The notes: generated by a model from the sequence alone, not told the origin. DNA of 57,437 nt from an uncultured Candidatus Saccharibacteria bacterium (GCA_964494945.1 CAZBTX010000005.1:1-57437), one strand, 5' to 3'. Shown: positions 13,652 to 57,437, counted from the stretch's first letter. Made by a program: numbers and translations.

Positions 13652-13659
13652 ACGTTTGC

Positions 13660-14174
13660 TTTCACATCCGTAAGCCGAATTCTGTTGTCACCGTGCCTCG
13701 CTACCGCTCGGCACTCAGCAACATGGGGCAAGCGACATGCGACATGGCAGTTACGCTAAAAGCGAACAGTACCTTGTCCCTTGTCGCTTGTTGCTTGTCA
13801 CTCGTGCTGAACAATAGTGAGGCACGATGCGTGGCCATCTGTCTTGGCGTACGATTGCTCGCACGCTCCAGCGGACTACTTGTCTTAGGGCGAGTTTGGA
13901 CCTCGCACTAGTTTGTCCTTGCACCAGATAGGGTTTTCCACCCGTGTATGTTGCCAAACACGGAAGTCGCGTTCGACGCGACACTTTTCACCTTTGGTCG
14001 TGACATTATTGTGGCGGTCACAACTAGTATAGTCTCTGTGGCACTTATCCCGCCAGCGCGCTCCGCGCGCAGCGTACAGCGGTTAGCGGACAGCGGATAG
14101 TCAAAACTATACGCTACGCGCCATACGCTATGCGCTAGGTGCGAAGCACACCGGGCGGCCATCTCGATGTAAAA
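13660..14174 (-). ncRNA. rnpB: RNase P RNA (type A-like) with expanded P3/P19 and no CR-I/P4 5' strand
   Basis: Minus strand shows P1 (uuuacauc/gaugugaa), P2 (UGGCC/GGCCA), CR-II AGUGCCACAGAGA, CR-III AGGUGAAA, GGUGCAAGGACAAA, P18 with GCAA loop, CR-IV AGACAGAUGGCC and CR-V ACAGAAUUCGGCUUAC. Confidence 0.9.
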
Positions 14175-14183
14175 GACCCTCTT

Positions 14184-14212: not shown

Positions 14213-14243
14213 TAGGTTAGCTACGTTCTCAAAGCCAGTTTGA

Positions 14244-14366
14244 CCCCGTTAGAGGTCCGATTTGCCTGCAAATTGGCGGCAATCTTAAGTCGGTTTTCTG
14301 ATAAAATGGCGTTTAGCCATGCTAAGGGTATTATGGCACTAAAGCGATTGCCTACCCCTAACGGGG
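14244..14366. repeat. CCCCGTTAG...CTAACGGGG element
   Basis: TTGACCCCGTTAGAGG at the left end and CCCCTAACGGGGTTTGAC at the right end. Confidence 0.85.
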
Positions 14367-14448
14367 TTTGACGCATGTCTTTATTCTAAACTAAGATGAG
14401 TGTACTATTAGTCAGGCGTAACACTATAACTTCTTAAATTACTGCATC

Positions 14449-18805: not shown

Positions 18806-19636
18806 GTGGGGCGCATAAGGTTAAAGATAGAAAAAGAAAAACTGAAAAATTTTTACATTGAGCAAAGACTTCCTTATCGGAAAATTGCCAAGTGTTTTTC
18901 TTGCTCCCGCGATACCATACGAAATCGCTTGCTTGAGTACAAAGTTAGAATAAGGAATAGGGGTGAATCACTTACCAAATATCCTAAAGTTGATTTTTCG
19001 GGGAATAAAGTCGAAGGAGCGTACCTGATGGGGTTTAGAATCGGTGATCTTAACGTTTATAAACCTTGTGCTGGGTCATCTGTTATAGTCGCAAGATGTC
19101 ACACTACTCATCCCAATCAAGTTCGGCTTATGAAAGAACTGTTCGGGCAGTATGGGCGCGTAACAGTATCACATTCTGCCACAGGCTCATTCCATATCAA
19201 TTGTTATTTAAATCAAACATTCAATTTCTTATTTTTGAAAGATTCAATACCACAATGGGTGAAGAAAAATAGGCATACATTCTCAGCATTTATTGCTGGC
19301 TATACTGACGCCGAGGGTAATTTTATTTTGAATCAAAAGCGCGGAAGGTTTAAGATAGATTCTTATGATTTTAAGATACTAGATGGAATTAAAGACTTTT
19401 TAATCATGAGTGGCGTGGGAGTTAGGTTTAGGCGAATTGCTCAAAAAGGAGGAGAAAGAGGGCGGGGTAAAAAATGGAATAATGACCTTTGGCGTCTCAA
19501 TGTTAATGAGGCAAGGTCCTTGAAGAAATTTATTAGATTTATCTGGCCATATTTGCGGCATGAAAAAAGAAGGGCCGACGCTGGGGTAGTTTTAGAAAAT
19601 GTGAATTCTAGGATAAGCAATGAAACCACCAGATAA
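18806..19636 (+). CDS. Free-standing LAGLIDADG endonuclease-like protein with N-terminal HTH
   Basis: AYLMGFRIGDL and AFIAGYTDAEGNF motifs; LYxxQRLxYRKIAKxFSCSRDTIR HTH; AT-rich relative to neighbours. Confidence 0.82.
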   Translation: MGRIRLKIEKEKLKNFYIEQRLPYRKIAKCFSCSRDTIRNRLLEYKVRIRNRGESLTKYPKVDFSGNKVEGAYLMGFRIGDLNVYKPCAGSSVIVARCHTTHPNQVRLMKELFGQYGRVTVSHSATGSFHINCYLNQTFNFLFLKDSIPQWVKKNRHTFSAFIAGYTDAEGNFILNQKRGRFKIDSYDFKILDGIKDFLIMSGVGVRFRRIAQKGGERGRGKKWNNDLWRLNVNEARSLKKFIRFIWPYLRHEKRRADAGVVLENVNSRISNETTR

Positions 19637-33576: not shown

Positions 33577-33653
33577 AATTTCTTCTTTCCGCAACCTTTC
33601 TCCAGCGAGCGGGCAAAAAATGGAGGGGGTGAGGGGGGGGAATTTTGCCCGCG

Positions 33654-33808
33654 AGCCGTCCGAAGCCCCGCCGCCCGCTCGGGAATAGCAGAGCCAAGCA
33701 AAATACTCTTTTCCTTTTAGAAGAATTTTTTGGTGGCGCGCGCAAATCGGAAATCGTAGAGAGTATTTTGCTTGGCGGCGAGCGTTAGCGAGCGGCGGCG
33801 GGGCGGCT
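33654..33808. repeat. Long GC-rich foldback (MITE-like) element
   Basis: Inner perfect 17-bp IR GCCAAGCAAAATACTCT (33693-33709) / AGAGTATTTTGCTTGGC (33760-33776); outer arms GCCCCGCCGCCCGCTCG / CGAGCGGCGGCGGGGC. Confidence 0.85.
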
Positions 33809-33869
33809 GTTTCCGTTCAGCAATTCCTGCTAAAATAGGTTCGAGCAAACTCGTAAAGATACACAAATT

Positions 33870-33899
33870 TAAACACCGGCAATGCATTGCCGGTGTTTA
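33870..33899. terminator. 30-bp perfect palindrome, probable terminator
   Basis: TAAACACCGGCAATGCATTGCCGGTGTTTA. Confidence 0.7.
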
Positions 33900-33926
33900 G
33901 GTGTCGGGTCGTGAGATGTCCTTGCT

Positions 33927-34166
33927 TCAAATCTTCGGCGTTACTTCTCCCAGTACTTTAGGATTAAACCCCATTTTCTTAATGCGAGTTCCTAGTTTCC
34001 ACTTGCCGTTCTAGAAGTGAGTTATCTGCATCTGACCTAACACGATCCTACCTTTACCAATTAATTTGGTAGCCCTATTCTTTATGAGAAAAATATATTT
34101 GTCAAGAAACTCAATTTTCTATTAGTTGCTTTTTTAATTTTCTAAATCGTCTAAGATGACACTCAC
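33927..34166 (-). pseudogene. 79-codon minus-strand frame interrupted by one TAG (34011-34013)
   Basis: VSVILDDLEIKKATNRKIEFLDKYIFLIKNRATKLIGKGRIVLGQMQITHF*NGKWKLGTRIKKMGFNPKVLGEVTPKI, ending before the palindrome. Confidence 0.35.
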
Positions 34167-34370
34167 ATCTTATTTAATTGACTTTATCCTAGTAGTATGC
34201 AATGGTAAGTATCTCCGCTCGGGTTATGCCCACACACCAATCTCGGCGAGACACTTTCGTATGCCGAGATGACAAGGCGAAGCCGCCTATCGGCTTGCAC
34301 ATCTGTTGTTGAGAATGTTTCTTCAAGATTGGTGTGGGGGTGAACCGAGAATTAGTGCAGGGGACGTTTA

Positions 34371-34476
34371 ACCCGTTAGAAAATTTATGGCAGGATTTAT
34401 ATCTGGTTAAAGCTCTAGATTTTAAATCCGGAGGACTTAACCTTTTTGAGCCCCTAGTTAAATTTTCTAATTGGGT
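34371..34476. repeat. Degenerate CCCGTTAGAAATT element in the helicase leader
   Basis: ACCCGTTAGAAATTTA ... TAAATTTTCTAATTGGGT. Confidence 0.7.
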
Positions 34477-36550: not shown

Positions 36551-39500
36551 ATGGAATCCGAACATTATCAATTGGTAGACATCATCAAAAGAACCGGTCG
36601 TCCCAAGACGACCCTTTTGCGTTGGGAGCGGGAAGGCAAAATTCCCGTGGGACAGAGAGACGTACACGGATGGAGATATTACACGCGTGGCGAATTTGAA
36701 ATGATAATCCAATTTGCCGAGCGAATGCAGAAAAATATTTTTACTTACATCCCGAGGCATACTCGCATGGTCGCACAGGACTCCGCGCCCAAACAAAAAA
36801 AGATTTTCAACACGGTGCTGGCGCGTCTCGGTATCCGGATGTTCCTTACGATATTAATTTTCGTGGCTATTGCGGCACCCCTTAGTTTATCCGCGACCGC
36901 GGGTGTCCCGAGTGTTATAAATTATCAGGGACGACTTTTGAATTCCAGTAGTAGTCTCCTGGGCGGCGCCGGAACCAATTACTGCTTTAAATTTTCGATT
37001 TACGACAATCCGACAGTTGATTTAGGAACGAAGCTCTGGCCCTCGGGTTCACCCGCCACTACCACCATCAGCGTCAAAGAGGGCGTTTTCAACGCGGCCA
37101 TCGGCGCGGGCGACGACGCCTTGACTTATGATTTCAAACAAAACAACACGATCTATTTGAACGTTGAGGTGGGAAGTCAGGTAAGCGGATCGTGCGCCTC
37201 GGCTTCGTTTGAAAATCTTAGCCCGCGGCAAAGGATAGTTTCATCCGGTTACGCCATCACTGCCGGTTCTGTTTTTGGCACGGCGCAGTCCGCCGTTGGC
37301 ACTACTTCACTTATTGCCAGCACTTCTCTAACCGTAGAAGCTACTTCCACGTCCGTCATTCCTTTGACACTTCGCGGATTCGCCAATCAATTGGCCGATC
37401 TCTTCCGCATTGTAACCGCGGCCGGTTCTCAACTTTTGACGTTCACGAGCGGAGGATATTTAGGCATCGCGACATCTTCCCCGTCGGAGGCCTTGTCGGT
37501 CGCAGGAAATCAATATGTTACGGGGACCGGACTTTTTGGCGGCGCTTTGAGTGCTGGTACCATCCTCCTTAATGGTTCTTCTACTTTCCAAAACTTCACC
37601 TTCATAAATGCCACGGGTACGGCGGCTACCACGACCTCTTTGACTGTCACGGGCTATGCTTCCACCTCGGCTTTGACGGTGTCCAACTTGAACGCCGCCA
37701 GCTGCGACGTCAAATCCAGCATCACTGGCGTGCTTTCCTGCGGCACGGACGCCGCAGGCGGCGGCACCGGTTCCAACTGGTCCTTCTACTCCCAGTTCGT
37801 TATCACGCCTTCCACTACTCCCATCGGCGTCATCGTTTCGGCCGCCTCCTCCACCATTCCCGGTCTTAGCATGACTTTTTCCACGACGACATATGCCACC
37901 ACCACGTCCCTGGCTGTTACCGGCGCGGCTTCCACTTCTGTTCTCACTGTATCTAACGATGCCACTCTCATGGGCGGCCTCACTCTCACCTGCACCGACT
38001 GCCTCACCGACACCAACGTGGCCAACGGTCTCACCATCTCCGGCGGCAGTATCAACTCCACCCCCATCGGGGCCTCCACCGCCAGCACCGGCGTCTTCTC
38101 CAACGCCACTTCCACCAACTTCTACATCTCCGGGAACTTCCTATCAGGTGCCGCCTCTTCCACCATTACTTTCCTGCAGACATCTTTCTCCACCACCACC
38201 GCTGCCACCACCACGTCCCTGGCGGTGACGGGCTATGCTTCCACCTCGGCTTTGACGGTGTCCAACTTGAACGCCGCCAGCTGCGACGTCAAATCCAGCA
38301 TCACTGGCGTGCTTTCCTGCGGCACGGACGCCGCAGGCGGCGGCACCGGTTCCAACTGGTCCTTCTACTCCCAGTTCGTTATCACGCCTTCCACTACTCC
38401 CATCGGCGTCATCGTTTCGGCCGCCTCCTCCACCATTCCCGGTCTTAGCATGACTTTTTCCACGACGACATATGCCACCACCACGTCCCTGGCTGTTACC
38501 GGCGCGGCTTCCACTTCTGTTCTCACTGTCTCGGGCGCCTCCATCCTTAACGGCAATGTCACCCTGGGCCAGTCCAAGTTACAGACCCTAACCTTAAATG
38601 CCGGACGGCTGGACTTCATCAATGCCGCCACCTCCACCGTCATCAATGACATCGCCACCGCCTGGAGCATCGCCACTTCCACTACCGACATCACTCCCAT
38701 ACTTGTCATCTCCACTGCGTCCACCACGCCCGCCGGCGAGGGAGCGGTGGGCATCGGTACCTCATCTCCGGTCCAGCACCTCTCGGTCTCGGGCAACGCG
38801 TACTTCACCGGAGGCCTGGGAGTGGGAGCAGCCACCAGTACCAACGGCAACTTCCAGCTAACTGGGGACGCTCAAATCGGGACCGCTCTCTCGGTGGGAG
38901 GCATCGCTTCCTTCGGAAACACCATCACCGGCACCGTCTTGAACAGCACCACCGGTATCAACACGGGAGCGGGCGCCGGCACCCAAAGGATTGACTCCTC
39001 CGGCAATCTTTCCAGCATCGGCACCATCAGCGCCTCGGGCCTGGCCACTCTCTCGGGCGGCATTCTCGCCAACTACGCTTCTTCCACCATTCGGGGACTA
39101 TTCGTGGACATGGGGACGACGACATACGCCACTTCCACTTCTCTGGCGGTCACGGGATACGCCTCCACTTCGGCCTTGACGGTGTCTAACCTCAGCACGC
39201 TCATGGGCGGCATCCTTTCTAACTACGCCTCCTCCACCATTCGGGGACTATTCGTGGATATGGGCACCACCACCTACGCCACCTCAACCTCTCTTGCCGT
39301 TACCGGAGCCGCTTCTACTTCAGCGCTTACGGTTTCCAACACATCCATTCTTAACGGCAACGTAACTCTCGGCGCCACTTCGGCGCAGACGTTGACGGCG
39401 AACGCTTCTTCCACTTTTGCCAATAGTGTTGCTCTCAACGGGGATATTGCCATGGGGAATGCCATTGGAGACCGCATTTCCATCAGCGCCGGACTCGTAA

Positions 39501-41470
39501 ATTACGGAAATAATTCCACTACCACGATCCCTAATAACTTCGTCAACGCCTGGAGCATAGCGACTTCCACGGGCGTTATGCCGATTCTTTCAGTGAGCAC
39601 CTTTAGCGGCACGGGCCTTGCCAGTTCCACCAGTCCCGGCCGCATCGGAATTGGCACGACCACGCCCGAAGCTCGTCTTTCCATTGACAGCCGGACGGCC
39701 TCGGACGTCGGTATCGCGGGAATTCATGAGGTCTTGACGATACAACCGACGGCTGGCGGCACGCAGTTCGGCAATCGCTTGGTCGTGGTGAATAGTTCTC
39801 AATTCTCGGCCAATACCATGGTGGGGCAATTCATCCGCGTGGTTGATGATTCAGGCCTGGCTAATACCGTAAGAGGTCTGGAGATACAATCCAATAGCGG
39901 CACCACCACTCTAGGTGTTAACACCGGCCTTTACGCCCAGGGAAAAACTTTCGGCGTCCAAGGCATTTCCACCGGTGTCGCCGGTGGCTCGCTCATTCCA
40001 GCGGAGGTCTATGCTGAAATCCAGGAGCCCACGCAGGGGCAAGCCCTCCGCGTTTACACCGCGACCACCACCACTTCGGACTTAGCGCTCTTTTTCCAGG
40101 AAGGGTCGCAAACATTCTCGGGCACGGGGCTTAAGATGAACTTCCATAAAGGCGCGGGAACGTTCACGGGCAACTTCCTGGACTTGCAGGATAACGACAC
40201 TTCCAAGTTCCGCGTTACCGCATCGGGCAATCTGGAGATCGGCAACGGCAGTATCTGCGTGGACTCCGACGGCAGCTGCACCGCCTCCACTTCGGGCGGC
40301 GCCATTTCAGCCAATCGCTACAACACCGGTTCGGCCGACATTGCGGAAAATTATTTCTCAAATTCTTTGCTGGAGAAGGGCGACATTGTGAGTACCAAAG
40401 GCGGCCTCATGGTGGATAAGGCAGAAAATTCAACCGACCCCATCATCGGCGTTGTTTCAACCAAACCCGGTATTGTTCTGGGAGAAGACGAGGACGTAAC
40501 CGTTCCCGGGGCCAGCGCATATCCCATAGCGCTGGCGGGGCGGGTCCCCGTGAAGGTGTCCGATGAGAACGGGACAATAAAGATAGGCGACAAGCTCCAG
40601 CTCTCGTCACTCACGGGCATCGGCATGAAATACTTGGCTTCTTCCACGGGGGTTACCGTTATCGGCGTGGCCTTGGAGGACTTTGACGGAACGAATTATC
40701 TTTCTGAAGTCACGGTAAAGGTGGAAACCGAAAAGAAGATCTTGATAACTGAAGAAATGGTGCCATCCGACGACACCCAGGATTACAGCGGTGGTGAAGG
40801 CGGCACCAGCGACCAAAACGCGGGAGCGCTGATAGAGAAAAAATCGGTGGCGCGGCTCGCCGCTTCCACCACGATTGAGAAAATCTTCATGCCCCCCGCG
40901 AATTCTCCGGCCCAAGATGCCAATATCTCGCCTGGACGCACGGTTAAGGTCGGAAAAGTCATGGTTTTCGTAACACTCGGCTGGTCGCGACTGGACGAAA
41001 GGATTTCGCAACTTGCGACAAGTGGCACGGGGCAAGTGGCAACGAACGGTTGGAGCGTGGATCAGTCCACTGGCAAGGTGAATGTCAATTTCTACGGGGA
41101 TGTAAGTTTATCCGGCAACAACCTTATAAATGTAAAGAAGATCGTGGGCGCGGACGCCAAGTTTGTTTTGGATGAGACCGGTAAGCTTGTCGTAAAAGAA
41201 ATTGAAGCCGATGCGGTTAGAACGAAAAAACTGGAAATAGGGGATACGGCGACACCGGCGGGTATCATCCTCTATGACCAGATAACCAAAGAGCCGTACT
41301 GTGTTTCAATCGCGAACGGCGAATTCGTAAAAGTCGCGGGCGTTTGCGGTGCTGTTTTAAGTCCACCGCCCGCGCTGGAGCCGCCCCCCGCCGAGCCAAG
41401 CGGGACAGAAACCCCGCTCGTTTCCGAGCCGACTTCTGGGGTCACAACTGAACCGGCAAGTGCGCCATAA
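36551..41470 (+). CDS. Giant Ser/Thr-rich surface fibre protein with N-terminal MerR-type HTH and a C-terminal autoproteolytic-chaperone-like domain
   Basis: IIKRTGRPKTTLLRWEREGKIP..HGWRYY; hydrophobic segment at about aa 97-117; ATTTS/ASST repeats; SADIAENY..IGVVSTKPG..IALAGRVPVKV..IKIGDKL. Confidence 0.8.
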   Translation: MESEHYQLVDIIKRTGRPKTTLLRWEREGKIPVGQRDVHGWRYYTRGEFEMIIQFAERMQKNIFTYIPRHTRMVAQDSAPKQKKIFNTVLARLGIRMFLTILIFVAIAAPLSLSATAGVPSVINYQGRLLNSSSSLLGGAGTNYCFKFSIYDNPTVDLGTKLWPSGSPATTTISVKEGVFNAAIGAGDDALTYDFKQNNTIYLNVEVGSQVSGSCASASFENLSPRQRIVSSGYAITAGSVFGTAQSAVGTTSLIASTSLTVEATSTSVIPLTLRGFANQLADLFRIVTAAGSQLLTFTSGGYLGIATSSPSEALSVAGNQYVTGTGLFGGALSAGTILLNGSSTFQNFTFINATGTAATTTSLTVTGYASTSALTVSNLNAASCDVKSSITGVLSCGTDAAGGGTGSNWSFYSQFVITPSTTPIGVIVSAASSTIPGLSMTFSTTTYATTTSLAVTGAASTSVLTVSNDATLMGGLTLTCTDCLTDTNVANGLTISGGSINSTPIGASTASTGVFSNATSTNFYISGNFLSGAASSTITFLQTSFSTTTAATTTSLAVTGYASTSALTVSNLNAASCDVKSSITGVLSCGTDAAGGGTGSNWSFYSQFVITPSTTPIGVIVSAASSTIPGLSMTFSTTTYATTTSLAVTGAASTSVLTVSGASILNGNVTLGQSKLQTLTLNAGRLDFINAATSTVINDIATAWSIATSTTDITPILVISTASTTPAGEGAVGIGTSSPVQHLSVSGNAYFTGGLGVGAATSTNGNFQLTGDAQIGTALSVGGIASFGNTITGTVLNSTTGINTGAGAGTQRIDSSGNLSSIGTISASGLATLSGGILANYASSTIRGLFVDMGTTTYATSTSLAVTGYASTSALTVSNLSTLMGGILSNYASSTIRGLFVDMGTTTYATSTSLAVTGAASTSALTVSNTSILNGNVTLGATSAQTLTANASSTFANSVALNGDIAMGNAIGDRISISAGLVNYGNNSTTTIPNNFVNAWSIATSTGVMPILSVSTFSGTGLASSTSPGRIGIGTTTPEARLSIDSRTASDVGIAGIHEVLTIQPTAGGTQFGNRLVVVNSSQFSANTMVGQFIRVVDDSGLANTVRGLEIQSNSGTTTLGVNTGLYAQGKTFGVQGISTGVAGGSLIPAEVYAEIQEPTQGQALRVYTATTTTSDLALFFQEGSQTFSGTGLKMNFHKGAGTFTGNFLDLQDNDTSKFRVTASGNLEIGNGSICVDSDGSCTASTSGGAISANRYNTGSADIAENYFSNSLLEKGDIVSTKGGLMVDKAENSTDPIIGVVSTKPGIVLGEDEDVTVPGASAYPIALAGRVPVKVSDENGTIKIGDKLQLSSLTGIGMKYLASSTGVTVIGVALEDFDGTNYLSEVTVKVETEKKILITEEMVPSDDTQDYSGGEGGTSDQNAGALIEKKSVARLAASTTIEKIFMPPANSPAQDANISPGRTVKVGKVMVFVTLGWSRLDERISQLATSGTGQVATNGWSVDQSTGKVNVNFYGDVSLSGNNLINVKKIVGADAKFVLDETGKLVVKEIEADAVRTKKLEIGDTATPAGIILYDQITKEPYCVSIANGEFVKVAGVCGAVLSPPPALEPPPAEPSGTETPLVSEPTSGVTTEPASAP
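37649..38529 (+). repeat. 302-bp identical intragenic direct repeat (37649-37950 and 38228-38529)
   Basis: Direct comparison; period 579 bp = 193 aa. Confidence 0.92.
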
Positions 41471-41494
41471 AAATAAAACTGCGAACGTCCAGCT

Positions 41495-44400
41495 ATGAAT
41501 AAAATTAACAGGTTTAAATATCTTTCCGGGGCAATCTTGTTTTTGACGTCCTTCGGATATTTATTCGTCGCGTTCCATATTCCAGAAACGCAGGCGTCTG
41601 TTTACACGGCGCAGGGGACGTTTACTAAGTGCTCGGGTTATTGCAGTTCAACGGTCAATATCGGATTTCAGCCCAAAGCCGTTTTCTATTATTGGAACAC
41701 GGCGACCGCCAACGGTTTCGTGGCTGACGCCTCCGCCGGGTACGGGTTTGCTGCCTCCACCACCGCCGCCAATCCGGTGAACCGGTCGGTGGCCGTGGGG
41801 TCAAACGACGCCGACACCACTTCCGAACATTCATCCGTCATATCGGCGACGACTTCCATAATTATGATCACCCAGGGAGCTTCAGCCGGAACGGTAGATG
41901 CGTTCGCGAGCACCACGGCCTTCACCGCCGACGGTTTTACCCTCGGCTGGGGAGGAGACGCAAATGCTTACATTATCCATTATTTCGCGCTCGGCGGGGA
42001 TGATATCACGAATACCGACGTTGACACGTTCTCGGTTACAACTTCGGGCACCTCCCAGGCGGTTTCGTCGCTCTCGTTCCAGCCGGATTTCCTGATGTTC
42101 ATTTGGGGCGCCACAACTACGGCAATGGCGATAAATAACTCGTCCATGCAGATCGGGCTTGGCATTGCCACAAGTTCCACGGGCCAGGCAGCCATCGCAA
42201 TGGCATCGGGGGACGCCAACGCCAACAACACCAGCAAGGTCTGGCAGCAGCAGTCAACCTCAACCATACTCACGATTCAGCCATCCCTCGCGCCTACACA
42301 GGATTCCATCTTGAGTTTGTCCACTATGGACCCTACCGGATTCACCATGAACAAAATTGATCCTCCGGCGGCGACCTACCCTGTTTATTTCATGGCCATC
42401 AAGGGCGGCCGGCACCGCGTGGGCGGGTTTGGCCAACCGACTTCCGCCCAGGATCAGGCAACCACCACTCTCGGTTTCCAGCCCGACGGACTTTTCCTGA
42501 TGACGGCTTCTTCCACGTTGGACGGCGCGCTTTTTGGCGTGACGGCGGTTACAACTGGCGCTAAACCGGGCGGCAGTATCTCGGTCGGTACGGCTTCTTC
42601 CACCGCCAACCAGAGCGCTGTTTGGTTCCAGGACATCAACCTTGACTCTTCGGACGCCAACATGCATTCAACTACCACGGTTCTCGCCGCGAAATTGAAT
42701 CGTTCAACGGTGTATCTATCACAGGCAAAACTTAAAAGTTTTGATACGACCGGCTGGACGCTGACCTGGCTGCAGGCCGATGCCTACGGAGGCCAGTTCT
42801 TCTATTGGGCGGTGGGGGACAATCCGGCCTCAAATATCACTATTTCGGGGAATGCTTACGAAAACGATTCCGGCACGGCGGCTTTGCAGGCCTGCGACGA
42901 CGCTACGCCGAATATAAAGCTTATTGTCGCGACTTCCACTCCCGGCCAGTATTCCACCACCTGCGCTGACGTGACGGGGCTGTATCAATTCTCCAGCGTT
43001 TTTCTTGCTCCCGCGGCCGATACCAAAATGTTCGCCTACATTGACGACTCGGCCTCCACCTACGGCGCGACATTGACGCTTTATGCCGGCTCGGGAAATC
43101 TTACCGGTCTGGATATTCGCGCCAGCACCACCATTGTGAGAAGCGAGACGGCGACTTCCATTGGCACCGAGGACTTCGGTTATTGGGAAAACGCCCAGGA
43201 TTCCGACATCCTCTGGGAAGTTACGGCCGAGGGAATTACGTTTGAACAAAATACGAAACTCTGGATAAATTCCGGCGATACATTTGTGGCATCCAGCACG
43301 GCTTCCACCACGCCCGGCGGGACGTTCGCGCGGGGCGGCGACGTACAGATTGACGGAACATTGAATATGGGGACGCAGGGGCTCACAGTCGGCGGGAATT
43401 TAATGAACTTTGGAACGCTTACCGTCTCCGCCGGGCAAACCACTACCTTTAACGGTACTAGGGCCGGCGGCAACAGCTTCGCTCCCGGCAATGATTTCAC
43501 TTTTCAGGGGCTCACTGTCGGCGGGTCGGTGGCTATAACGGCATCCAGCTCGGTTAATGTCGCCCAAACCTTAACGGTGGGGAGCGGGGCGGTACTAACC
43601 GTGCCCTCCGGCAAAAACGCGACTACGACTTCAACCGTAACTTTGACGGGCACTATCAACGGCACCGGCACCACCACTTTCGGAAGCGCCGCTATCGCCT
43701 GCACCAACGTGCCTTCGGGCGGCACTTTGTCCGTCAACGTGCGGGTGGAGGCGACATTTGGCGGGTGCACCGTACCGTCCAGAACCTACGGGGCTAATCT
43801 GGAAATCCACAACGGCGGTACTACCGTTACGGGTGTTTCAGCCGAGACCTCGGGCACGCTATCGGTAAGCGGCAGTTTATATTTAAGGGCCGACGGCACG
43901 GCCAATACGACTTTCAGCGGAACGGGTAGCGCTTTAAGCGTTACCGGGGGTGTTCTTTATAACGGCGGCGGGTCGGGCAGTGAAATAATCCTGACCGGAG
44001 CCGGCGCTTGGACAGTTTCGGGCAACACAGATTTTACCGGCGGCACTTTTGCCGCTTCTTCCACCAATGTTTTTACCATGAACGGTACCGCTAAAACCCT
44101 GACTTCCGCCGCGCAGGCCTTCGCGGGATTGACACTCTCCGGCACCATCACAGTGGCCGACGCCGCTTCTTCCACGGCCTCACTTGTGCTTTCGGGGAGC
44201 GCCATAACTTTAAATTCCACCGCGAGCACCACGGGAGACGCCACGCTTTCGGGGACAATTTATCCTCAATCGCAAGCAGTAGTTTTGAACGGTGCATCAA
44301 AAACACTAACGGGAGGAGGCATTGTAGGTTCACTTCGCACTAACGGCTCCTACACGCTCTCGGGCGCCGATCTTACCGTAGGTACCTCAACCATCTATAC

Positions 44401-46588
44401 GAACGGGTCTTTAACCATCGGCTCCGGGCGGTTCTACACTTCCACTTCCACGCTTACGCTTTCCGGGACGCTTGCCAGCGCTTCGCTGGGGAACGGGACA
44501 ACCACCATCCAGCATTCCAACTTAAGCACGGGGGGTACTTTGAATTCCAATCTCCGGTTTGACGCGACCACTGCCTCCTCCACCATGCCCAATAGAACTT
44601 ACGGAGGCAATATTGAGATTTATTCCAACTCCGCGTCAGCCCGGGGTGTCGCAATGACGGCGGGGACTTACACCATTGGTTCAAGCCACTTGATACTGAA
44701 CGCCGCCAATTCGGGGAATCTTACTCTGGACGGAGGAACGAATAACGTAACGCTTACCGCCGCGAGCACAACCTTCATCGGCGCTGGCGCGGGAAGAGAA
44801 ATAATGCTCGCCGGCACCAATCCCTGGACGTTCAATCAAAACTTAACTACCACGGCCGGGACGTTCAAGGCCTCTTCGGCGACAACTTCCATCGCGGGGG
44901 ATTACGACAATTCATCGGGACTTTTCGTGCATTCTTCCGGTGTGGTGGTTTTGGACGGGCTGAACCAGCAAACCGTATCGGGAAATGCCACGTCCACTTC
45001 CGCGTTTTATGACCTCACCATTTTCAACAATTCCGGCACCAACGGCACCACCAGTCCCTCTGTGATATTCACCGACTCCGCTTCTACCACCAATTTGTTC
45101 ACCGCCACCACTACGGGGGTGAAAATACGCTTGGCGCAGGGAGCGGGGAAAATGCACACCTTCCAAAATATCAAGTGGGACGGCTTAAACTCGGTAATGC
45201 CCTTGATGTTCCGCTCCGCCAATTCCGGCTCGCAGGTGTCTATCCACGTTCCGGGGACCCAGAACACCGTATCGTTTACGGACTTTATGGACATGAACGC
45301 GTATGTAACGGCGATTACGGCGGACGACGGAACGAACGTTGATTCCGGCGATAACACGAATATCACTTTCCCCGCGGCTTTCCAGGCCCCCACCGCCGTT
45401 TCGGCCGCCAATCAGGTTTTTGAGGTCGGGCAGGCAGCGACCACCAATTCACAGATCACGGTTACCGGCGGGGCGGCCGCGGGCGCCATCACCGCCTCCG
45501 GCGGACTTCGTATCGCCATTGCCACTTCATCGGCTATGACGGCAAGCCCGGTTGATATGCGCTGGGATAAGACCATTACCACGGCCAAATTCGGCGGCAC
45601 GGCTTCATCCACGGCCGTGACCACCGCCACCGTTTCTTATGAAGGACTGGACGCGAGCGGAGACGCCAGCGTCCTTTCCATAGCGGTGGCCAACAATTTC
45701 AGCACCGGCAATACTCTTACCATTGATAATCTCAAGTTCAAGAGTTTTGGTACGGCCGCGGCTTCATCCTCGGCCTTGGTACTTTTCCTGAACGGGGCGA
45801 CCGACCAGAGTTCCAACGCCACGAATACGAACCAGTACGTCGCCATCAAGGGCGCCGAGGTCCTGGCCAATCAAACCGCGACACAGGAAGCGAATAAATT
45901 GAACATTACGCAATCAAGCGTTACGGACGCTGAACTTTTCGCTTTCAAATTAACGCCTGCCAGCGAGAGCGTGAATGTAACAGGACTCGTTATCCAAATC
46001 CCAGACGTCAACGGATTTGCCTGCGCGAACATCACCGCCAATATGGGATTATACGCCGACTACAGCGACAACGGCGACGTAGACGGCTTGGAAGCGACTT
46101 TCGGCGGCACGCCAGTCTGCTCCATCAGTGCCTCCACTCATACCGGCACTCTGACCTTCAGCGCGGCTTTTGCTACCTCCACGGCCCGCGGTTATATTTT
46201 GCGCTCCGATATCGCGAGCAACGACGCGGGTGATAAGATACTGTTCTCCATCAGCCCCTCCGATATAACCGCCTCCGGCGTCGTGTCTTTACAGACCATT
46301 ACGCCTTCCGGTAGCGCATCACAAGCCGCGCAATTTCGTGAGAGTAACTTGATAGGTAGTGGCAGCACCGGGGCCTCTCCGGTATATGAAACGCCCGTCG
46401 GTGGCGGGACACCCGGCGGTGGAAGTACTCCGCCTCCGTATGAACCGCCCACCGGCGGCGGGGTAGATCAAAGCGGCGGCGGCGGGAGCGTGCAAGCGCC
46501 GGACACTCGCTTCTTCGCGGGCATTGGGTTTGCGCTCGGTGACATTATTGGGAAAGTCATTGACCTTTTTAGGCCCCTAGGTAAGTAG
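41495..46588 (+). CDS. Giant secreted Thr/Ser/Gly-rich beta-solenoid-like surface protein
   Basis: Signal peptide; recurring (L/I)GFQP(D/K)-type modules; long GTLT/GSLT beta-repeat region; Gly/Pro-rich tail. Confidence 0.78.
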   Translation: MNKINRFKYLSGAILFLTSFGYLFVAFHIPETQASVYTAQGTFTKCSGYCSSTVNIGFQPKAVFYYWNTATANGFVADASAGYGFAASTTAANPVNRSVAVGSNDADTTSEHSSVISATTSIIMITQGASAGTVDAFASTTAFTADGFTLGWGGDANAYIIHYFALGGDDITNTDVDTFSVTTSGTSQAVSSLSFQPDFLMFIWGATTTAMAINNSSMQIGLGIATSSTGQAAIAMASGDANANNTSKVWQQQSTSTILTIQPSLAPTQDSILSLSTMDPTGFTMNKIDPPAATYPVYFMAIKGGRHRVGGFGQPTSAQDQATTTLGFQPDGLFLMTASSTLDGALFGVTAVTTGAKPGGSISVGTASSTANQSAVWFQDINLDSSDANMHSTTTVLAAKLNRSTVYLSQAKLKSFDTTGWTLTWLQADAYGGQFFYWAVGDNPASNITISGNAYENDSGTAALQACDDATPNIKLIVATSTPGQYSTTCADVTGLYQFSSVFLAPAADTKMFAYIDDSASTYGATLTLYAGSGNLTGLDIRASTTIVRSETATSIGTEDFGYWENAQDSDILWEVTAEGITFEQNTKLWINSGDTFVASSTASTTPGGTFARGGDVQIDGTLNMGTQGLTVGGNLMNFGTLTVSAGQTTTFNGTRAGGNSFAPGNDFTFQGLTVGGSVAITASSSVNVAQTLTVGSGAVLTVPSGKNATTTSTVTLTGTINGTGTTTFGSAAIACTNVPSGGTLSVNVRVEATFGGCTVPSRTYGANLEIHNGGTTVTGVSAETSGTLSVSGSLYLRADGTANTTFSGTGSALSVTGGVLYNGGGSGSEIILTGAGAWTVSGNTDFTGGTFAASSTNVFTMNGTAKTLTSAAQAFAGLTLSGTITVADAASSTASLVLSGSAITLNSTASTTGDATLSGTIYPQSQAVVLNGASKTLTGGGIVGSLRTNGSYTLSGADLTVGTSTIYTNGSLTIGSGRFYTSTSTLTLSGTLASASLGNGTTTIQHSNLSTGGTLNSNLRFDATTASSTMPNRTYGGNIEIYSNSASARGVAMTAGTYTIGSSHLILNAANSGNLTLDGGTNNVTLTAASTTFIGAGAGREIMLAGTNPWTFNQNLTTTAGTFKASSATTSIAGDYDNSSGLFVHSSGVVVLDGLNQQTVSGNATSTSAFYDLTIFNNSGTNGTTSPSVIFTDSASTTNLFTATTTGVKIRLAQGAGKMHTFQNIKWDGLNSVMPLMFRSANSGSQVSIHVPGTQNTVSFTDFMDMNAYVTAITADDGTNVDSGDNTNITFPAAFQAPTAVSAANQVFEVGQAATTNSQITVTGGAAAGAITASGGLRIAIATSSAMTASPVDMRWDKTITTAKFGGTASSTAVTTATVSYEGLDASGDASVLSIAVANNFSTGNTLTIDNLKFKSFGTAAASSSALVLFLNGATDQSSNATNTNQYVAIKGAEVLANQTATQEANKLNITQSSVTDAELFAFKLTPASESVNVTGLVIQIPDVNGFACANITANMGLYADYSDNGDVDGLEATFGGTPVCSISASTHTGTLTFSAAFATSTARGYILRSDIASNDAGDKILFSISPSDITASGVVSLQTITPSGSASQAAQFRESNLIGSGSTGASPVYETPVGGGTPGGGSTPPPYEPPTGGGVDQSGGGGSVQAPDTRFFAGIGFALGDIIGKVIDLFRPLGK

Positions 46589-55704: not shown

Positions 55705-57141
55705 ATGGCAAGTATTTCACCAAAAAATAATTCTGGCTCACTCAATAATTCGCGGCGTGTTAGCGATATCCGCGTACGAAAGTCGCCCAGCGAATCGCGG
55801 AGTTTGCCGATTTCACGTCCGTCTCACACTAAAGAACCCTTGGCGGAGGAAAGTTTGGATAGAGTCAAGGAAACCGCGAATGACGCCAACATAAAAGATT
55901 TTTTCGCTCCCAGGGCGCCCGCCGAAACAAAATCATTCAAATCGGCTGATCAACTCAAAATTCGGGCCTGGCGTCCCCAAAGTCGCGTCAAATCAAAGAT
56001 ATTTATCTGGGGTGGAGGAATTCTCGGGGGTCTTATAGGTATTGCGGTTATACTTTCAACAGTTTTCGCGAGGGCCATTATCATTATTCGTCCGGGAACG
56101 GCCACTTTTGCCATCCCCGCAACCGTCCTTCGGGTAACACCCGATGCCCGCGCTATTGATCTCGCGCGCGGCATTATACCGGGGGAACTTATAGAATTTT
56201 CGGAAACGGGCCAGTTGGGTGCCGCCACGGCCACCGGAAAAAAATTCATAAAGGAAAATGCCAGGGGCAAGATAATAATCTCTAACGCCTACAGTTCCCA
56301 GCCGCAAGTGCTGGTGACGGGAACACGCTTTGAAGGTCTGGAGGGAAAAATATTTAAACTGGAAAAGGGTCTTACGGTACCGGGGGCTAAGGTAAATAAC
56401 GGAGAAATTGTGCCTAATGTCATTGAAGCGACCGTAATTGCCGCCGAGCCGGGAGCCGAATACAATATCGGCCCCACAAACTTTAAGCTCCCAGGATTCA
56501 AAGGAACTCCTAAATATCAGGCCTTCACAGCCAAGTCAGAAGCGGATTTCCAGGGCGGTTTTAACGGTGAGGCGGCTGTCGCCACCGAATCGGATATCGC
56601 CAAAGCCAGCGAGCGCGTAACATCCGAGCTTTATAATTTCCTTAAGAACGCCCTGCAGGCAAAAATTCCGGAAGGATTTTTGGTGATTGAGGGAGCGCGT
56701 GATATCGCGATAACCAGTGTCGTACCGCCGCCAGTGGGGACGCCCGGCGAGAAATTTTCCGTAACAGCCGCGGGCAGGGTCCGGGCTTTAGCGTTTCGAC
56801 CGGTTGACGAGGGGAACTTCATAGCGGCGTCATTTTCAACTTCCACGCCTTATACTCTGGTTCCCGAAAATAGCGTTATCAATCACTCTTCCATAAATTT
56901 TGATTTGAATAAGCGGCAACTATCCTTGACACTTTCGGGGAATGCCGCGCTCGGCGCCCGCGTAGATTACGATAAGCTAAAAAACGACCTAGCCGGAAAA
57001 TCCAAGGATGAGATAAAACAAAAACTGGATACTTCGCCGGGTATCAGTTCTTATGAGCTTAAATTCTTTCCGTTTTGGCTGACAGGTGCTCCGCGGGACC
57101 CCGAGGGAGTCAGGATAACCATTGAGCCCTTCACATTTTAG
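55705..57141 (+). CDS. Bitopic membrane protein with baseplate-J-like beta domain (CPR-typical, follows ftsA-like gene)
   Basis: Disordered N-terminus, TM helix, ATGKK..ARGKIIISN..GTRF..VIAAEPGAEYNIG. Confidence 0.65.
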   Translation: MASISPKNNSGSLNNSRRVSDIRVRKSPSESRSLPISRPSHTKEPLAEESLDRVKETANDANIKDFFAPRAPAETKSFKSADQLKIRAWRPQSRVKSKIFIWGGGILGGLIGIAVILSTVFARAIIIIRPGTATFAIPATVLRVTPDARAIDLARGIIPGELIEFSETGQLGAATATGKKFIKENARGKIIISNAYSSQPQVLVTGTRFEGLEGKIFKLEKGLTVPGAKVNNGEIVPNVIEATVIAAEPGAEYNIGPTNFKLPGFKGTPKYQAFTAKSEADFQGGFNGEAAVATESDIAKASERVTSELYNFLKNALQAKIPEGFLVIEGARDIAITSVVPPPVGTPGEKFSVTAAGRVRALAFRPVDEGNFIAASFSTSTPYTLVPENSVINHSSINFDLNKRQLSLTLSGNAALGARVDYDKLKNDLAGKSKDEIKQKLDTSPGISSYELKFFPFWLTGAPRDPEGVRITIEPFTF

Positions 57142-57150
57142 GCATCTTTG

Positions 57151-57437
57151 GTTGACCCCGTTAGAAGCAGGTCGCGATCAGATTAACTTTTTTCTATACA
57201 ACATCTTAAATGAAACATTGTTTGTATGCTGTTAAAGAAACTACCGCGATCGCGGCTTCTAACGGGGTTGACCCCGTTAGAGACCCGCATAGAATCATGT
57301 CTAATTCCATGACAAGCCGAAACAAAAAACCACCCTTGATCGTTGTTAACTTCCAGAAATGCGGAACGTCGCATTTCTTGTCTCTAACGGGGTTGACCCC
57401 GTTAGAGACCCGCATAGAATCATGTCTAATTCCATGA
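57151..57437. repeat. Head-to-tail array of GTTGACCCCGTTAGA...TCTAACGGG units
   Basis: Units start at 57151, 57267 and 57392; junctions form TCTAACGGGG-TTGA-CCCCGTTAGA; 57383-57437 duplicates 57258-57312. Confidence 0.92.

Follow-up and report, generated by a model that had tools for sequence, protein, structure and literature searches.

The stretch of DNA analysed here (57,437 nt; the window) ends in an array of short hairpin-forming units (57150-57437). We consider it probable that this array consists of two, perhaps three, copies of a dispersed MITE-like hairpin element that inserted next to one another in succession. The element itself can be classed with fair confidence among the MITE or foldback transposable elements, being small, non-coding and hairpin-forming, with its adjoining copies at a promoter. 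Taken on its own the array is ordinary, and if nothing beyond these basics holds, the finding is an ordinary pair of adjoining MITEs. Its interest is the family to which the copies belong: its spread, its covarying 13-bp stem, its start-codon niche and its mover. CPR genomes are tiny and streamlined and are generally assumed to contain little mobile DNA; an element in ribosomal-protein operons, in -35 boxes and on the start codons of essential genes is an appreciable burden for them and may provide a further level of gene control.

Concerning the array, the sequence GGTTGACCCCGTTAGA occurs three times, at 57150, 57266 and 57391, with spacings of 116 and 125. A 24-nt palindrome, TCTAACGGGGTTGACCCCGTTAGA, is present at 57258 and 57383, the gaps are 92 and 101 nt, with no more than three units, and the final 55 nt (57383-57437) are an exact repeat of 57258-57312. 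The terminal sequence CCCGTTAGA was counted 11 times in the window (0.41 expected from shuffles), and seven occurrences of the 16-mer with up to three mismatches were found (0.36 expected). The first complete unit, E5 (57156-57267, minus strand, 112 bp), has the ends C-CCCGTTAGA-AGC and GCT-TCTAACGGG-G and an asymmetric inner module, GATCGCGACCT, which adjoins the element end on the minus strand. The second, E6 (57272-57392, plus strand, 121 bp), has the ends C-CCCGTTAGA-GAC and GTC-TCTAACGGG-G, with a small hairpin (GAAATGCG-GAACGT-CGCATTTC) immediately inside its right end. The start of a third unit (57397-57437, plus strand, 41 nt) is identical to the start of E6 and is truncated by the contig end. 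The sequence TTGA is found before E5 (57152-57155), between E5 and E6 (57268-57271) and after E6 (57393-57396). The arms pair over 19 nt in unit 1 and over 27 nt in unit 2, and similarity between the two interiors was not detectable. The description given in the initial annotation, three units with periods of 116 and 125 that each fold on themselves through co-varying ends, with unrelated interiors in units 1 and 2, was thus borne out, the repeats lying where they had been placed and far above shuffles.

Solitary copies are also present in the window. E1 (1040-1147, 108 bp, T..A ends, no clear duplication) is situated in the spacer between rplR and rpsE, in a repeated block of ~230 bp, and the identical E2 (2195-2302) in the second copy of this block, in the rplO-secY spacer. 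E3 (14244-14366, 123 bp), which has the variant right end CCTAACGGG, separates the RNase P RNA gene from a TPR gene and is flanked by TTTGA on both sides (14239-14243 and 14367-14371), its right flank forming a promoter-like TTGACG-18-TAAGAT ahead of the TPR gene. E4 (34372-34475), upstream of a DEAD-box helicase gene, is decayed, with the right end TCTAATTGGG and no duplication. All of these solitary elements have the form CCCGTTAGA...TCTAACGGG, and none has the full palindrome on both sides. The window elements fold as long, very stable hairpins (z-scores -3.0 to -7.8), and the genes downstream of all copies are on the plus strand. The 5-7 copies in the 57-kb window correspond to one per ~8-11 kb. 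Other contigs encoding identical S5 and helicase proteins come from the same population and display the same element state. A predicted empty site for E3, AAGCCAGTTTGACGCATGTCTT, matched one metagenome contig (L129) with unrelated flanks, and was rejected as a chance 22-mer match.

In order to examine the distribution of the element, CCCGTTAGA-N80-110-TCTAACGGG (element lengths of ~100-128 bp) was searched in one genome per species, and at least 120 loci were obtained. The copy set used below consists of 132 copies from 120 loci among the matches listed, plus the window. Judging from record titles, about two thirds of the listed loci belong to CPR/Patescibacteria (Saccharibacteria, Parcubacteria groups), and the remaining ones mainly to Omnitrophota, Planctomycetota and Deltaproteobacteria. 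By our arithmetic ~270 chance matches are expected in the whole genome collection; nearly all retrieved copies have features beyond chance, and real copies therefore far outnumber chance matches. When the criteria were relaxed, 149 copies were found in 0.9 Mb of listed loci and none in shuffled sequence. Copy sizes range from 27 to ~280 bp (longest 279 bp), with only short leader-type ORFs and no transposase coding capacity. Excluding the copy that triggered retrieval, carrier loci contain about one element per 30 kb. Viral contigs gave three matches, at least one of them probably due to chance, and the junction pattern had no match in 2.9 million viral contigs. Directly abutting copies were found in 2 of ~121 loci among the matches listed, the window and L033. 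We also observed 27-nt mini-hairpins with the family ends nested in larger copies (L017, 5795-5821; L085, 6560-6586), that of L017 being flanked by CGAG on both sides. The layout proposed initially, a constant palindromic junction joining variable cassettes, has to be abandoned: the same termini bound solitary elements at at least 120 other loci, never with the palindrome on both sides.

The element has the form Y-CCCGTTAGA-RRY...RYY-TCTAACGGG-R. Its terminal inverted repeat is 13 bp long, and the stem consists of the outer Y:R pair, CCCGTTAGA and the variable RRY positions. Over 90% of the 132 copies (among the matches listed) have Watson-Crick pairs at stem positions 0-12, and positions 10-12 covary (A-T/G-C, A-T/G-C/C-G and T-A/C-G). 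Pairing collapses at position 13, which is C at one end and T at the other, and the element ends therefore differ inside. One end carries a module of the form ACGG-stem-loop-stem-CCT adjoining the repeat; like the interior motifs CGGGA and GTCG, it recurs in subsets of copies. The interiors are weakly structured and unrelated: 111 of 132 gave no match (among the matches listed), E1, E5 and E6 are mutually different, and in a MAFFT alignment of 85 oriented copies the ends alone align.

The sequences flanking the elements were then examined. The six bases on each side agree at five or more positions in 75 of 131 elements among the matches listed, and in about two in shifted controls. The signal resides in left -5..-2, which equals right +2..+5 and has the form T-N-N-A. 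Left and right flanks agree at both variable middle bases in 52 of 67 and 42 of 64 elements among the matches listed (22.6 and 8.7 in shuffles). The modal duplication is TNNA, and the outer flanks favour R and Y, resulting in a target of RTNNAY; the duplicated sequence itself changes from locus to locus. Base -1 (Y) pairs with base +1 (R), and both therefore belong to the element, with the qualification that the exact boundary is ambiguous, as the invariant A and T can be counted with the element or with the flank. Nor is the duplication uniform, some copies displaying 2, 3 or 5 bp and E1 and E4 none. These short direct repeats are a target-site duplication. In the array every junction in the window is G-TTGA-C, which fits RTNNAY, and consists of a right end (TCTAACGGGG), TTGA and a left end (CCCCGTTAGA). 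As the 4-nt TTGA is the locus-variable duplication, the "palindromic junction" is a by-product.

The position of the array could be addressed through relatives. Homologues of the last gene in the window were found at 48-54% protein identity, and the contigs that carry them share the order mnmA-alaS-ftsA-like-X-infA-(rpmJ)-rpsM-rpsK-rpsD-rpoA-rplQ. In these relatives a conserved promoter-like TTGACN-17-TACCAT forms the end of the spacer before infA. Because of this synteny, the array is placed in the TTGAC -35 box of the predicted infA promoter. L133 carries no element in this spacer (TTTA-TTGACT-17-TACCAT), in L142 a single decayed element is bordered by TTGA left and right, in L130 an unrelated element of 150 nt runs up to G-TTGAC, and the window has at least two; the relatives are distant, and the comparison is not one with a strain-level empty site. 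Empty and filled orthologous sites, like the duplication and the dispersed copies, are observed directly, and the promoter location of the array is predicted on the basis of synteny with the relatives. As the interiors at this site are unrelated, they represent independent insertions into a favoured target. The duplication leaves the TTGAC -35 hexamer intact, and E3 likewise abuts a -35-like TTGACG.

Two further features of this operon were noted in the relatives. In L139 (2125-2560), and also in L140 and L141, a different non-coding element of ~290 bp lies between the -10 box and infA; its ends, GAGTGTAGGATTCGAAC...GTTCGAATCCTACACTC, resemble a tRNA T-arm, and TAG or CTAG borders the element. 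The infA spacer hosts a second MITE family in these relatives. In L130 and L133-L136, the spacers among rpsM-rpsK-rpsD-rpoA-rplQ are ~100-170 nt, which is long for this operon.

Each insertion of the element copies a few target bases, usually TNNA within RTNNAY. Since the end bases of the element are Y and R, RTNNAY is restored at both new junctions, and the rebuilt target lets a second copy insert beside the first, leading to the arrangement end-TTGA-end. Going by synteny, the target in the window is the TTGAC -35 hexamer in the predicted promoter of the infA-rpsM-rpsK-rpsD-rpoA-rplQ cluster. The presence of a duplication speaks for staggered cleavage of both strands, the mode used by DDE transposases, and the mover may be a transposase acting in trans that cuts in this way, probably of the DDE type. 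Recombinase, transposase, cas, intI, Nop, Y1 and RAYT genes were not found in the window, and no copy with a transposase gene was found in ~0.9 Mb of listed loci. All-against-all BLASTP of 1306 ORFs gave housekeeping families only, with no recurrent neighbour gene. Candidates for autonomous copies, selected as long-range terminus pairs, were either false or longer non-coding copies of 209 and 279 bp. As a lead to the enzyme, the element ends (CCCGTTAGARRY) seem to us to recall the piggyBac/IS1380 DDE superfamily, presumably in having CC(C) followed by TAGA. The piggyBac end is CCCTAGAAAG; the element is eukaryotic and its duplication is TTAA. The likeness, as we take it, extends to a T..A duplication of 4-5 bp and a palindromic motif of ~19 bp just inside one end, and the looser target (TNNA) would be a difference.

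The closest kind among known systems is the bacterial MITE, the hairpin-forming representatives of which include Correia/NEMIS of Neisseria, ERIC and RUP (review PMC10969869). The elements described here share with these a small non-coding size, terminal inverted repeats, a short target-site duplication, many copies per genome, both intergenic and inside operons, occasional tandem or nested copies, and transcripts able to form long hairpins; presence and absence at orthologous sites was also found. They differ in that conservation is limited to 13 bp per end, that the interiors are unrelated even within one genome, that three stem positions vary yet stay paired, that the same ends occur across several phyla, and that one branch resides on start codons; the term 'start codon' is absent from the 2024 review of prokaryotic MITEs (PMC10969869). 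Copies within a genome do not resemble one another as those of a MITE do, and no parent insertion sequence is known, ends shared with an autonomous insertion sequence being absent from the ~0.9 Mb of loci.

Some of these features do not sit easily with a MITE. Copies in one genome with unrelated interiors are unlike a typical recent MITE burst. Where the stem varies it does so in pairs, which suggests that base pairing itself is under selection, as in a hairpin of ssDNA or RNA; such selection is not obviously required by a transposase that binds two separate double-stranded ends. Hairpins of 27-29 nt with duplications are too short to join two dsDNA ends, unless they shrank after insertion. 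We therefore considered whether the same elements move as folded ssDNA hairpins by means of an HUH (Y1, RAYT, IS200/IS605-like) nuclease or an integron-type tyrosine recombinase. A 13-bp stem that is perfectly paired where its sequence varies and 27-nt hairpins with the same ends are in agreement with such a mode, as is orientation: copies follow gene direction in 39 cases and oppose it in 4, and away from gene starts they follow neighbouring genes in 19 and oppose them in 7, a pattern that strand-specific, replication-coupled transposition would give. To our knowledge, however, these enzyme families leave no target-site duplication, and here a strong, locus-variable one is present. Moreover, the ends are true terminal inverted repeats instead of a pair of dissimilar subterminal hairpins, G-T pairs are no more favoured than A-C mismatches, with no evident one-strand selection, and Y1, RAYT and integrase genes are absent from the window and none is recurrent near the elements. 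We regard this mode of movement as unlikely. The same balance is seen against REP/REPIN-RAYT and IS200/IS605-derived elements, which are also dispersed non-coding hairpins moved in trans, with recognition of structure and an orientation bias, but which carry a conserved GTAG or subterminally placed hairpins and are not known to duplicate their target, whereas the elements here have terminal inverted repeats and duplications and no Y1 gene was seen with them. The initial annotation had suggested that a recombinase or HUH nuclease drives the system; some nuclease or recombinase must indeed act, and the duplications favour a staggered-cut transposase over an HUH enzyme or a tyrosine recombinase that reads the single-stranded hairpin. 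The co-occurring tyrosine recombinase or TnpA/RAYT genes expected on that basis were found neither in the window nor recurrently near elements.

As regards the genes that follow the copies, 68 of the 132 (among the matches listed) have an ORF of 60 aa or more that opens at the base directly after the element, compared to ~2% expected by chance. Fifty-eight of 68 copies with T..A ends (85%) are at an ORF start, whereas only 8 of 57 with C..G ends are, most of the latter lying elsewhere and many not beside genes (both counts among the matches listed). At the same loci, free ATGRR sites number 126 at ORF starts and 516 between ORFs, corresponding to an expectation of ~20%. The downstream genes are ordinary and varied, among them those encoding ribosomal proteins L17 and L1, IF3, RuvC, RNase H, YqeY, amidase, prephenate dehydratase and holin. 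Pfam matches begin at residues 1-4 (YqeY, RuvC, RNase H, amidase, prephenate dehydratase, holin), indicating that the ATG after the element is the true start. This new ATG is composed of the terminal A of the element and the TG of the duplication, and the old ATG remains on the left; where C..G-ended copies occupy a gene start, ATG is retained on the left and GTG stands on the right. In the frame set by the old ATG (M-x-P-V-R...), 24 of 67 copies among the matches listed are open over their entire length, compared to 6, 0, 10, 9 and 0 in the other five frames (shuffles, 6.5±2.5). The resulting leader ORF ends in 15 copies at a conserved TAA (UAACGGGAUG) located 4 nt before the new ATG, and in 5 at an AUGA overlap. 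Copy lengths favour the frame ending at the TAA (33:22:12), and none of the 12 in-frame copies is open.

These features raise the possibility that T..A-ended elements of the CPR branch persist chiefly at start codons, where the old ATG would open a leader ORF running to a UAA 4 nt before the new ATG, and the gene would stay translated by termination-reinitiation coupling. We infer such coupling for the copies with leader ORFs. Shine-Dalgarno-like motifs occur at normal spacing from the element boundary in 12 cases and from the old ATG in 5, numbers that are small and mixed; this spacing suggests a hairpin that bridges the motif and the start codon rather than coupling through the leader ORF. 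As an element on a start codon would be lost by precise excision alone, a retention bias may add to the excess. Mycobacterial interspersed repetitive units (MIRUs) are reportedly intergenic repeats in operons that are oriented with the genes and contain small ORFs overlapping or adjoining the flanking genes, with coupled translation. They are tandem minisatellite units without inverted-repeat ends or duplications, and are not known to rebuild start codons.

Taking the family as a whole, we raise as a tentative and rather doubtful possibility that it represents an undescribed cross-phylum family of hairpins moved by an enzyme that reads the 13-bp stem, with a CPR branch specialised for start codons that inserts at ATGRR, rebuilds the ATG and leaves a leader ORF ending 4 nt before the gene. 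If true, a selfish element would live on essential genes (L1, L17, IF3, RuvC) without silencing them and might tune their translation. The start-codon habit would constitute a natural case for studying bacterial translation initiation across a 100-nt hairpin, and the conserved, covarying 13-bp stem provides a defined substrate for finding the enzyme. In the part of the literature covered, exact matches to the terminus strings were limited to primer or shRNA sequences of no relation, and nothing relevant on MITEs or hairpin repeats in CPR was found. The element family has probably not been described before.

The abundance of copies at gene starts could also be read in terms of RNA, the hairpins being fixed cis-acting signals in 5' leaders, such as a site for RNase III or an RNA-binding protein, an mRNA stabiliser or a fold placing the Shine-Dalgarno sequence beside the start codon. 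Flanking duplications and empty and filled orthologous sites are not explained in this way, and many C..G-ended copies are not beside genes. All copies in the window do lie upstream of plus-strand genes, over half of all copies adjoin a start codon with a set orientation, Shine-Dalgarno-like motifs are found at normal spacing from the hairpin base, and the hairpins are very stable (z-scores as given above); nevertheless, the downstream genes are mutually unrelated, and neither folding energy (p = 0.065) nor G-U use distinguishes the two strands. No Rfam family was matched; for the array, nothing was obtained at the gathering threshold, and the best permissive hit (16.9 bits) was to an unrelated microRNA hairpin model. 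We judge a primary role as RNA signals to be highly improbable, although an RNA role could have been acquired secondarily by the transposable element.

That the array is of an integron, CRISPR or TIGR-like type, with the palindrome as the functional repeat and the stretches of ~100 bp as captured cassettes or guides, is scarcely credible. The repeats are regularly spaced with unrelated interiors and their GTT/AAC triplets resemble attC cores, but solitary elements indicate that the unit is GTTAGA...TCTAAC, and arrays are rare and short. The resemblance to attC pointed out initially fails on the order of the core triplets, which is reversed (attC is RYYYAAC...GTTRRRY). Even when the junction is read as attC, the 12 nt between the cores leave no room for L boxes and the outer base is Y and not R. 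Imperfect palindromes, conservation of structure over sequence, GTT/AAC triplets and the possibility of arrays are common to attC sites, CALINs and the elements here; in the latter the stem is fully paired without extrahelical bases, flanking duplications are present, the window contains no integrase, interiors are ~90-100 bp and the neighbours are housekeeping genes in conserved order. CRISPR arrays have repeats of ~24-48 nt, spacers of ~26-72 nt, many units and cas genes, and were rejected on the basis of gaps of 92/101 nt, at most three units, dispersed copies and the lack of cas genes in the window. TIGR arrays are known in CPR and consist of 36-nt units or stem-loops with UG/CCA boxes, two spacers flanked by box C/D-like motifs and a location beside a Nop-domain Tas gene (PMC12045711). 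With a period of 116-125 nt and no Nop-domain protein, cas or intI in the window, a TIGR array was also rejected. The earlier view of a mini-cassette system that is neither CRISPR nor integron is thus sustained in its exclusions and not in its cassette architecture.

The adjacency of E5 and E6 is found without mismatch in three further assemblies of the same organism. NCBI contig JACOYZ010000006.1 stops inside unit 2 (window 57356), and two Logan contigs stop 6 nt past the opening CCCGTTAGA of unit 2 (window 57287). The third unit is present in this assembly alone, the other three all ending within the array, and could reflect a genuine second E6 in tandem, a looped assembly graph, or reads derived from a dimer or an excised circle; the earlier caution about a contig break in a repeat of k-mer length (55) remains valid for this unit. 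That the whole array is an artefact, a single element looped by the assembler, is least probable of all, as units 1 and 2 differ and their junction is found in the three other assemblies, which confines to the third unit the doubt raised by a terminal repeat of exactly 55 nt and by the break of every assembly of this organism at this point. Both ends of this contig and the contigs of the three other assemblies stop in such repeats, and the element family thus breaks assemblies at its repeats.

At the other end of the contig, the ~230 bp block containing E1 or E2 (975-1208 and 2136-2363, 95% identity) fills the rplR-rpsE and rplO-secY spacers. In addition to the element it contains the hairpins TCTAAAATT...AATTTTAGG and CTAAATTTTA...TAAAATTTAG and ends at the start codon, and its last ~45 nt are also found ahead of rplF at the contig start (1-52). 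The block is a repeated leader within the ribosomal-protein operon and is probably the reason why the contig starts there. The RNase P RNA beside E3 (bacterial class A, 13655-14175, minus strand) scored 94.7 bits and was absent from the default Rfam scan because this is just below the gathering score of 100; it covers 521 nt compared to the 367 positions of the model, indicating large insertions. The region preceding E4 (33577-34370) is a long gene-free stretch with a GC-rich long inverted repeat (~33590-33830) and other hairpins, and gave no Rfam match at an E-value below 0.1. A free-standing ORF between murJ and lepA (18806-19636) has a weak LAGLIDADG-type homing-endonuclease domain (E = 5e-5). 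Two giant ORFs (36551-46588 and 55705-57141; 1639 and 1697 aa) are nearly without Pfam matches, and one of them holds a 150-bp tandem repeat (39055-39340). The last ORF in the window comes after an FtsA/PilM-like gene in conserved order, and its relatives are called 'baseplate protein' by one source, some of them having Baseplate_J/GlxA domains.
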